Origin: an uncultured Ectothiorhodospiraceae bacterium
GTDB lineage: Bacteria > Pseudomonadota > Gammaproteobacteria > S012-40
NCBI GenBank assembly: GCA_945787125.1
Contig: CALZHW010000108.1
Span: 1-12,391 of the forward strand
Direction of reading: 5' to 3'
DNA length: 12,391 nt
Below, in pieces: positions 7,701 to 7,768 of this stretch. How positions within the stretch are numbered: position 1 is the stretch's first letter; each line of letters begins with the position of its first letter. Under the pieces are notes generated by a model. It had not been told where the DNA came from. It saw nothing but the letters and a program-made list of their open reading frames with translations, and did not search any database. The position numbers and the translations under genes were made by a program.

Positions 7701-7768
7701 TGGTTTACTACATGAGGGGAGTCGAACCCCAGCCCGAAGGCTTTCCCTAAACACGTTTAACAGACGTG
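7701..7768 (-). ncRNA. second structured module: an anticodon-like hairpin (loop CUGUUAA), a UUCG-tetraloop hairpin and a T-arm-like hairpin ending ...AAACCA
   Basis: The minus-strand sequence is ACACGT-CTGTTAA-ACGTGT, then TTAGGGAA-AGCC-TTCG-GGCT, then GGGG-TTCGACT-CCCC, then TCATGTAGTAAACCA. The first element is a 6-bp stem with a 7-nt loop identical to a tRNA-Asn anticodon loop. The three consecutive hairpins resemble a tRNA anticodon arm, long variable arm and T-arm with no 5' acceptor or D-arm. Confidence 0.45.

Follow-up and report, generated by a model that had tools for sequence, protein, structure and literature searches.

The stretch of DNA analysed here, hereafter the window, comprises the 12,391 nucleotides (nt) of contig CALZHW010000108.1 (assembly GCA_945787125.1) from an uncultured Ectothiorhodospiraceae bacterium. 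It carries genes for the RNA ligase RtcB and the RNA 3'-phosphate cyclase RtcA, followed on the same strand by a gene for a slipin, a protein of the Band-7 (SPFH) family, and the 658 nt between rtcA and the slipin gene are free of genes and hold a structured RNA. Within this RNA a group of hairpins at 7769-7701 of the minus strand, here called the module, was found to be a genuine and selected partial tRNA-like structure, whose helices are kept by compensatory substitutions among related loci. The features of the locus are as follows, in the direction of the minus strand.

10627-12216, plus strand: rtcR, a divergent gene for a sigma-54-dependent activator whose N-terminal domain is of RtcR type (Pfam RtcR 2.8e-85, Sigma54_activat 1.1e-45)
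10481-10467, minus strand: sigma-54-type promoter TGGCACGGCAGCTGC, upstream of rtcB
10408-9170, minus strand: rtcB, RNA ligase (Pfam RtcB 2.3e-130)
9114-8104, minus strand: rtcA, RNA 3'-phosphate cyclase (Pfam RTC 1.3e-77)
8030-7479, minus strand: the whole structured RNA of ~550 nt, made up of a 5' domain, element 1, the module and a 3' domain
8030-7953, minus strand: 5'-most hairpins, P1 GGCCGG..UCGGCC (8030-8005) and P2 (~7988-7953), with the conserved AAAGAAUGUUG
7943-7844, minus strand: 5' domain, closed by GUUUGGC (7943-7937) with GCUAAAC (7850-7844), as predicted by RNAalifold with compensatory changes
7840-7769, minus strand: tRNA-like element 1 (Rfam tRNA, 40.8 bits), which fits the predicted b7a-tRNA
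7769-7751, minus strand: hairpin AC2, the "anticodon-like" arm A-CACGU/CUGUUAA/ACGUG-U with its loop at 7763-7757, a variable and dispensable stem-loop
7750-7743, minus strand: junction between AC2 and H, UUAGGGAA, with GGG at 7747-7745 and then A-rich bases
7742-7731, minus strand: hairpin H, AGCC/UUCG/GGCU, 4 base pairs (bp) and a tetraloop, abutting T-arm 2
7730-7716, minus strand: T-arm 2, GGGG/UUCGACU/CCCC, a canonical T-loop (U54 U55 C56 R57 A58) with the G53-C61 closing pair
7715-7702, minus strand: tail UCAU-GUAGUAAACC, of which the GUAGUAAACC block (7711-7702) is single-stranded, 3' of T-arm 2
7699-7479, minus strand: 3' domain of ~220 nt, closed by a long-range helix of GGGCACCCUU (7699-7690) with GAGGGUGCCC (7488-7479), 10 pairs, most with compensatory changes
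7445-6291, minus strand: slipin (Band-7/SPFH) gene, 384 amino acids (Pfam Band_7 1.7e-29), with Shine-Dalgarno sequence AGGAGG at 7455-7450

A first-pass annotation made from the letters of the window had described three successive hairpins, the second of them capped by UUCG, and when 7769-7701 is read on the minus strand these are present exactly as described, the UUCG hairpin being AGCC/UUCG/GGCU. The absence of a D-arm and of an acceptor 5' strand in front of the triplet was also confirmed; the triplet abuts instead the discriminator-like A (7769) with which the Rfam tRNA match of element 1 ends. It had further been proposed that the hairpins mirror the 3' two-thirds of a class II tRNA. This likeness is fair as far as the order of parts is concerned, with a stem-loop of 5 bp and a 7-nt loop bearing a U33-like U, and then an extra hairpin directly before a canonical T-arm, but it fails at the junction between the first two hairpins, which is 6-13 nt long across homologues and holds an invariant GG, where class II tRNAs have 1-2 nt at positions 44-45. 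In addition, the T stem has 4 bp rather than 5, the "anticodon" arm is dispensable, and tRNA models miss the module: stretch 7768-7701 was called a tRNA neither by the Rfam tRNA model nor by ARAGORN, and its weak Rfam matches are to a T-arm fragment of tmRNA (12.8 bits) and to mascRNA (16.2 bits, E 2.5). No acceptor 3' strand, discriminator or CCA stands after T-arm 2, where UCAU-GUAGUAAACC leads into the 5' strand of the long-range helix, and no complementary 5' strand was found. The loop of T-arm 2 had been assigned to the type seen in tRNA-Sec; UUCGACU is, however, no signature of tRNA-Sec but an ordinary UUCRANY T-loop, with UUCGAAU, UUCGAGU, UUCAACU and UUCAAAU in its place among homologues. 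For the T-arm pattern GGTTCRANYCC the window has two occurrences (T-arms 1 and 2) where 0.07 would be expected, and the thermodynamic stability of the region is unremarkable (z = -0.27, single-sequence folding of 7850-7690).

Related loci, numbered from L001, were gathered by several routes. An RtcA-based scan of genome contigs gave L001 and L002, which are loci of gammaproteobacterial metagenome-assembled genomes, and a pattern scan of metagenomes gave L006-L008 together with a chance match inside coding sequence (L005). More than 8000 homologues of the slipin protein are known, and the lookup of eleven of them led to loci within L009-L024; tblastn against plasmids and chromids added relatives in Photobacterium, Burkholderia and E. 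coli with 42-47% identity. As to a phage origin, neither the pattern scan of viral contigs nor tblastn of the slipin against phages gave a match.

A covariance model, R1, spanning T-arm 1 (that of element 1) to T-arm 2, found exactly one strong match per locus (46-97 bits) and was used to align 16 sequences for the counting of pairs, a MAFFT core alignment having misplaced the variable hairpin and being unusable for this purpose. In the 16-sequence alignment 99.3% of cells were paired, compared with 33.5-55.0% when the partners were slid, and double-sided changes were seen at 13 of the 18 pairs (1-4 in the slid controls) and in 44 cells (1-5 in the slid controls); none of 500 shuffles reached the observed values. 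All of the helices contribute covarying pairs, namely AC2 (5/5), H (3/4), T-arm 2 (2/4) and T-arm 1 (3/5). The R1 alignment is fitted to a model, which favours pairing; nonetheless, the slid controls and an independent RNAalifold result agree with it. The slipin proteins of the 16 loci are only 56-91% identical to that of the window. Covariation among homologues had been set beforehand as the test of the hairpins, and across these 16 loci they are conserved with compensatory changes.

The universally kept core of the module consists of the GG, the 4-bp tetraloop hairpin and the canonical T-arm, and AC2 is a dispensable, variable insertion. The GG dinucleotide stands 1-5 A-rich nt before H in 16 of 16 sequences. 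Hairpin H is kept as a 4-bp stem of widely differing sequence (AGCC/GGCU, UGCC/GGCA, GCCC/GGGC, CGCC/GGCG, GGGC/GCCU, AGGC/GCCU, AGUC/GACU, AACC/GGUU) under a UUCG, UUAG, GAAA, GAGA or GCAA loop, or a 5-nt loop in L017, and is separated from T-arm 2 by 0-1 nt. T-arm 2 was present in all 16 loci with a 4-bp stem (variants include GAGG/CCUC and UGGG/CCCA), a G-C closing pair and a loop that is always UUCRANN and in 15 of the 16 UUCRAMU. The AC2 loop had been likened to the Asn anticodon loop, and CUGUUAA, the anticodon loop sequence of E. coli tRNA-Asn, does occur in the window, but it is specific to the window and its place is taken in homologues by CUUAGGA, CUUUUAC, CUUAUCA, CUUAUAA, UUUAGGU, CAUUUAA, CUGAUAC, CUGGAAA, CUAAAAA, CUCAAAA, UUCCA, UUUUC or UUGUUCAC. 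Since 10 of the 16 loops have 7 nt and begin with CU, which places a U at the U33-like position, and 9 of those 10 have a purine at position 37, a U-turn-like anticodon-loop shape is common in AC2, and the "Asn" identity is a coincidence of the window. AC2 loops of 5 or 8 nt were found in L014, L022 and L002, the AC2 stem is lengthened to 10 bp in L008, and L006 has no AC2 hairpin at all, the acceptor 3' strand being joined there straight to the GG.

In all 19 related loci a leader of 530-860 nt without genes lies directly upstream of the slipin gene, and in every one except the E. coli locus L025 this leader carries a match to the Rfam tRNA model or to R1. The 12 loci that were retrieved via the slipin protein, without reference to the RNA, all have such a leader (L009, L011, L012, L014, L015, L017, L018, L019, L022, L023, L026 and L027). 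The spacer from the RNA to the slipin AUG measures 16-89 nt, and strand and order are the same across loci. In the window itself the module lies 271 nt and element 1 324 nt upstream of the AUG (7445). The upstream neighbours vary. The rtcB-rtcA pair precedes the leader in the window and in L001, L002 and L006-L012; in L018 (Microbulbifer) rtcB is upstream and rtcA lies 3' of the slipin gene, and L022 has rtcB with no rtcA in the stretch available. Unrelated genes are found upstream in L014, a nucleotidyltransferase gene accompanies the leader and the slipin gene in L025, and L026 and L027 offer no annotation to judge from. The first-pass annotation had suggested looking for the triplet next to rtcB in other genomes, and an RtcB-type operon does accompany it in 11 of the 19 loci (12 with L019, where rtcA only is in view); among the remaining loci, L015, L017 and L023 have tRNA arrays with an HNH gene. 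Since the leader is kept whatever its upstream neighbour (rtcA, rtcB, an HNH gene with a tRNA array, or an unrelated gene), and the RNA is present without adjacent rtcB or rtcA in L014, L015, L017 and L023, the RNA follows the slipin gene, in a tRNA-repair neighbourhood, and not rtcB as such, and its link to RtcB is indirect.

Further members of this neighbourhood were seen in some of the loci. RlaP and a CCA-adding-type enzyme are among the downstream partners (L009, L019); RlaP adds 1-2 nt to damaged RNA 3' ends. Directly before the slipin leader, four loci have 4-8 tRNA genes and then an HNH endonuclease gene (L015 2286-2724, L017 1841-2681, L019 1696-2523, L023 457-2358), the array tRNAs being Arg-ACG, Lys-UUU, His, Gln, Tyr, Phe, Leu, Asn, Pro, Gly, Glu and Met. 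In L009 a group II intron D1-D4 domain (Rfam RF02005, 172.8 bits) was located at 6913-7134, downstream of the slipin-RlaP pair.

The leaders from Photobacterium, Burkholderia and E. coli each have their own sigma-54-type promoter, TGGCAC-N5-TTGA or TCGC (read by eye, with two of the three also found by scan), and differ in the number and completeness of their tRNA-like parts. That of Photobacterium has two tandem tRNA-like elements of 54 and 46 bits, and because the second covers nearly the whole tRNA model (positions 4-67, 46.4 bits), a tRNA origin of the module is plausible. The Burkholderia leader likewise has T-arm-bearing elements in tandem, first one that resembles a minihelix and then a tRNA-like one with a tetraloop. 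In E. coli L025, where the R1 match has only E = 0.44, a single T-arm, UGGG-UUCGAUU-CCCA, was read by eye, followed by a hairpin; 1632 of the 5426 complete E. coli genomes have this leader, and no feature is annotated over it. The family is thus marked by a slipin leader that holds one or two tRNA-like domains with a T-arm. The E. coli leader occupies L025 4680-5003 (CP061233.1 611490-611813), is unannotated and has the sigma-54-type promoter TGGCACGCTTCTCGC; the locus consists of leader, slipin gene and nucleotidyltransferase gene and is placed between a DUF3811 gene and lysC.

It had been proposed that the triplet and the tRNA-like element before it might together form one bipartite tRNA-like fold, and the two were indeed found to belong to one RNA, inside a single conserved structured transcript. 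The RNAalifold consensus of the 8 near-clade leaders contains 180 pairs, of which 82 show compensatory changes. Its 5' domain holds a near-invariant GCGCAUCCACC..GGUGAUAUGUGUACC hairpin, and motifs of the 5' domain recur in distant loci. The long-range helix that closes the 3' domain was recovered, with differing sequences, in 15 of 16 leaders (for example GAUCUCCCUG/CAGGGAGGUC, GGUGCUUCC/GGAAGCACC and GGGGCCCACU/AGUGGGCCCC), and the end of this domain lies 33 nt from the slipin AUG. Between the two closing helices, 6 near-clade leaders out of the 8 (those of the window, L001, L002, L006, L007 and L008) share the GUAGUAAACC block without change, L009 and L011 have variants of it, and L023 has a relative, GCAGUAAAC; the block is unpaired in the consensus fold of the 8 leaders, and no pairing partner was found for it there. 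In a search of Rfam 15 at gathering thresholds and at E up to 10, covering the region and 17 related loci, tRNA (element 1) was the sole family match, next to a sub-threshold YrlA match and spurious miRNA matches on an AT-rich hairpin; the same search excluded GOLLD, ROOL and tmRNA as identities.

Two smaller observations concern this fold. UAAAC-bearing conserved blocks flank the tandem tRNA-like region on both sides, GCUAAAC(ACC) before element 1 and GUAGUAAACC after T-arm 2, and as GCUAAAC pairs with GUUUGGC (7943-7937), GUAGUAAACC could in principle compete for that strand. RNAalifold also pairs the conserved AAUGUU (7993-7988) with GGCAUU (7451-7446), between the Shine-Dalgarno sequence and the slipin start codon, a possible translation-proximal long-range contact that is weak and not clearly kept in distant loci (for example L012, read by eye).

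The site TGGCACGGCAGCTGC is the sole promoter-like site detected for the unit of rtcB, rtcA, RNA and slipin gene, equivalent sites stand upstream of rtcB in L009, L010, L011 and L018, and no sigma-70-like promoter was detected in 7400-8200. Three terminator-like sites were seen in the same interval: the first is encoded on the opposite strand, the second is a GGATC hairpin within the last part of rtcA, and the third is at 7702-7689. This last hairpin, CAAGGGCACCCUUG-UUUG, was considered as a conserved terminator and rejected, because its bases serve the covarying long-range helix 7699-7690/7488-7479, with which it clashes, and the hairpin is confined to the window and not formed in homologues. 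No conserved terminator was found between the module and the slipin gene.

Element 1 has a D-arm (GCUC/GAGC) and a T-arm (GCCGG-UUCGAAU-CCGGU), a weak acceptor stem and a degenerate 6-nt "anticodon" loop, and it was not called by ARAGORN. Its homologues score 35-68 bits with the Rfam tRNA model. In distant loci element 1 has a 6-7-bp acceptor stem followed by N73-CCA or CCG (read by eye), with identities of Phe-GAA, Thr-AGU, Lys-UUU, Leu-UAG, Ile-AAU or Met-CAU. Because the anticodon loop varies among loci or is replaced altogether, by a GAAA tetraloop in L014 and Burkholderia and by a large insertion in L009, selection on element 1 is on the tRNA body and not on decoding.

The partner protein was also examined. 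No membrane segment is evident in the slipin sequence. The AlphaFold2 model (predicted local distance difference test, pLDDT, 81) has two N-terminal beta-repeat modules, and the C-terminal 200 residues form a stomatin-type SPFH domain and a long helix, with stomatin matches in PDB. In Foldseek searches stomatin, HflK and prohibitin match the C-terminal part and are better than major vault protein for the SPFH part; the alignment with major vault protein extends over 416-475 columns, exceeding the 384 residues of the query, with E ~1e-10, TMq 0.38-0.44 and 13-15% identity. The model is compatible with the slipin being a soluble cage- or ring-forming scaffold. In P. aeruginosa the SPFH protein PaFlo8 is embedded in an rtc locus and has shown no phenotype so far.

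Several described systems resemble the one considered here. Burroughs and Aravind are said to have pointed, in the abstract of their 2016 paper, to SPFH/Band-7 scaffolds with "a novel tRNA-like molecule". As that work is reported in a passage of Wang et al. 2018 (bioRxiv 10.1101/312249), a Band-7 protein and a predicted b7a-tRNA stand beside RtcB, and the same passage treats b7a-tRNA as an unvalidated bioinformatic prediction and proposes functional redundancy with YrlA. The window has the same combination of RtcB, Band-7 protein and a predicted non-coding RNA (ncRNA) strongly resembling tRNA, and element 1 fits this prediction. The module, in contrast, is a second, reduced T-arm module 3' of the tRNA-like gene, and both are inside a structure of ~550 nt. 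In the searchable literature, which does not cover Burroughs and Aravind 2016 itself, no earlier account of either the second module or the flanking domains was found, nor anything on SPFH proteins or slipins with a tRNA-like RNA and RNA repair, or on sigma-54/RtcR with a tRNA-like leader. The module is thus apparently an undescribed structural part of a known, predicted kind of RNA.

A further parallel is YrlA, a bacterial Y RNA (RF02553), which is likewise an ncRNA with a tRNA-like domain, in an RtcR/sigma-54-controlled RtcB operon (rsr-yrlBA-rtcBA) and beside a ring- or cage-forming protein (Ro60/Rsr), and which shares the D-arm sequence GUAGCUCAAU..GGUAGAGC with element 1. Enzymes that act on tRNA also modify and process the tRNA-like domains of YrlA. 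However, the RNA of the window reaches 19.6 bits with the YrlA model against a gathering threshold of 69, the match being driven by the D-arm of element 1, and YrlA has ~110 nt and a circularly permuted tRNA-like domain, whereas the RNA of the window has ~550 nt, an element in tRNA order and a second T-arm module. No rsr/TROVE gene was found among the open reading frames (ORFs) of the window that were scanned or among the genes called in 13 related loci. The Ro-binding motif GNCGAAN0-1G was matched by GUCGAAAG at 7778-7771, in the acceptor 3' strand of element 1; the match is by chance, homologues having CAAUAG, CAAAG and the like.

The tRNA arrays with HNH genes in four of the related loci resemble the cyanobacterial "L-arrays" with their conserved HNH gene and co-regulated rtcB, and Anabaena de-represses its tRNA array along with HNH genes, rtcB and a slipin gene, all members of one translational-stress regulon. 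The papers on such arrays deal with functional array tRNAs and the TrcR repressor and not with the slipin leader, and the window is without an array and under RtcR/sigma-54 control. A likeness to the eukaryotic vault is also seen, as the slipin model aligns with major vault protein along its whole length (beta-repeats, SPFH shoulder, long helix) and its gene is tied to a tRNA-related, small-RNA-like transcript, but stomatin and HflK are the better matches to the SPFH part, and the identity with major vault protein is the 13-15% given above.

On these grounds, and by analogy with the Y RNA YrlA, we lean, a little beyond an even chance, towards reading the module as a tRNA-elbow mimic that would serve as the protein-docking part of a slipin-associated RNA. 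The whole RNA would be transcribed from the RtcR/sigma-54 promoter within the rtcB-rtcA-RNA-slipin unit; the reduced second tRNA-like domain would present a second T-loop "elbow", possibly with the GG as a surrogate for a D-loop; the module and element 1 would offer tRNA-like surfaces to tRNA-recognising proteins; and the flanking domains would associate with the putatively cage-forming, major-vault-protein-like slipin. The "Asn anticodon" and RtcB ligation of the module appear to lie outside the conserved design. Several points weigh against this reading. The RNA runs on into the slipin ORF, with 33 nt between its 3' domain and the AUG, and the anatomy would therefore fit a purely cis-regulatory leader just as well. 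GG and T-loop 2 are both invariant, so covariation says nothing on their contact, and the GG could instead pair with the ACC 5' of element 1 in the near clade or with the CC of the encoded CCA in distant loci; such ACC-GGU "extension helix" and CC-GG pairings are plausible, with partners that are invariant or clade-dependent. Finally, the E. coli relative keeps a single T-arm, which implies that two elbows are not universally required.

As to how the module could be derived from a tRNA, AC2 may be an anticodon arm and H an expanded variable arm, or, as another possibility, H may be a truncated anticodon arm with the GG-A as a D-loop remnant (G18-G19-A21), an option supported by the resemblance of GGUAAAGCC to the D-arm GGUAGAGCA. 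A much wider proposal, which we regard as speculative and doubtful, is that b7a-tRNA is the tip of an undescribed class of large RNA (~550 nt) with two elbow domains and two complex flanking domains, which would assemble with a cage of the soluble SPFH protein resembling major vault protein into a bacterial vault-like ribonucleoprotein, recruiting or shielding tRNAs and repair enzymes during RtcR-controlled RNA damage, the module being the most conserved core of the second elbow.

Among the alternatives to the elbow mimic, a cis-regulatory leader is the strongest, though it is not probable. The structured RNA would be the 5' untranslated region governing slipin synthesis. RNase P or RNase Z/E might cut it at the embedded tRNA-like element, so that the slipin mRNA would begin with the module as a structured protection, or a tRNA-recognising protein might bind it and modulate translation. 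Such a leader is consistent with the invariable placement of RNA, 16-89 nt spacer and slipin AUG on one strand, with the lack of a conserved terminator and of a promoter of the RNA's own in the window, with element 1 of distant loci being a callable tRNA whose acceptor stem and CCA or CCG make it a plausible RNase P/Z substrate, and with the RNAalifold pairing beside the start codon. However, ~550 nt with two tRNA-like domains far exceeds what known processing signals need, and that pairing next to the Shine-Dalgarno sequence is weak and not clearly kept in distant loci; a regulatory leader is, moreover, compatible with the ribonucleoprotein model. An anticodon-nuclease decoy or sensor, in which the two anticodon-arm-like hairpins, of element 1 and of the module, would bait tRNA-cleaving toxins and the 2',3'-cyclic phosphate products would feed RtcR activation or RtcB re-ligation, seems unlikely. 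Many AC2 loops have the expected CU start and purine 37 with highly variable "anticodons", the anticodons of element 1 vary likewise (Phe, Thr, Lys, Leu, Ile, Met), genes for tRNA repair abound in the neighbourhood (RtcB, RtcA, RlaP, the CCA-adding-type enzyme, tRNA arrays), a sponge role has been proposed for array tRNAs, and tRNA halves ending in cyclic phosphate activate RtcR (PMC10159003). The decoy reading is nevertheless weakened because the anticodon-like loops are dispensable: AC2 is absent in L006, elongated in L008 and of unsuitable loop length in L014, L022 and L002, and the loop of element 1 is replaced in L014 and Burkholderia, interrupted in L009 and reduced to 6 nt in the window. 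The strictly conserved GG, H and T-arm 2 are, furthermore, not targets of anticodon nucleases, and Salmonella YrlA is not cleaved by a RecA-dependent nuclease.

The second idea of the first-pass annotation, that the module imitates a tRNA 3' fragment and would itself be ligated by RtcB or cyclised by RtcA, appears very unlikely. Sharing an operon with rtcB and rtcA in the window and having a topology that recalls the 3' part of a tRNA speak in its favour, but the module is internal to a longer structured RNA, is without acceptor 3' strand or CCA, starts with an intact hairpin and not with a cut anticodon loop, and also occurs where rtcB and rtcA are not adjacent, and the Asn-like loop is not conserved. 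It is scarcely credible, finally, that the module is a non-functional remnant, either a decayed second tRNA gene, which the first-pass annotation had named as the outcome that would undo its proposal, or a tRNA 3' half duplicated by an integrase at an att site. The nearly full second tRNA-like element of Photobacterium makes descent from a tRNA duplication plausible, but the compensatory substitutions in 16 loci and the fixed position within a larger covarying structure contradict decay, no direct repeat of att type is shared with any tRNA in the window, and no integrase was found by Pfam among its 10 largest ORFs.

RtcB/RtcA operons are widespread, but little is understood of their cofactors and RNA partners. 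Should a large RNA of several domains, with tRNA-like ones in tandem, indeed be encoded here, "b7a-tRNA" would be revealed as part of it, and the locus would represent a second Y-RNA-like system in which a cage-forming protein and a tRNA-mimicking RNA are joined in RNA-repair operons; it would also add a concrete RNA component to the connection that bioinformatics has drawn between repair modules of bacteria and the vault of eukaryotes. The leader-slipin-nucleotidyltransferase locus of E. coli could open the system to study in a tractable organism. For annotation, tRNA-like matches beside slipin genes should not be called tRNA genes or pseudogenes.

Two further features of the window were noted. 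A long AT-rich, near-perfect inverted repeat, GUACCUAAGAAAU...AUUUCUAAGGUAC, lies at 8056-8106 of the minus strand, immediately beyond the stop codon of rtcA; neither L001 nor L002 has it. The repeat gives rise to the spurious sub-threshold miRNA matches in Rfam, and may be a window-specific insertion or a stabiliser hairpin. At the other end of the window, 83-1753 holds rpoD and then an ordinary tRNA-Met (CAT) gene at 1677-1753 (74.9 bits), which is unrelated to the module.

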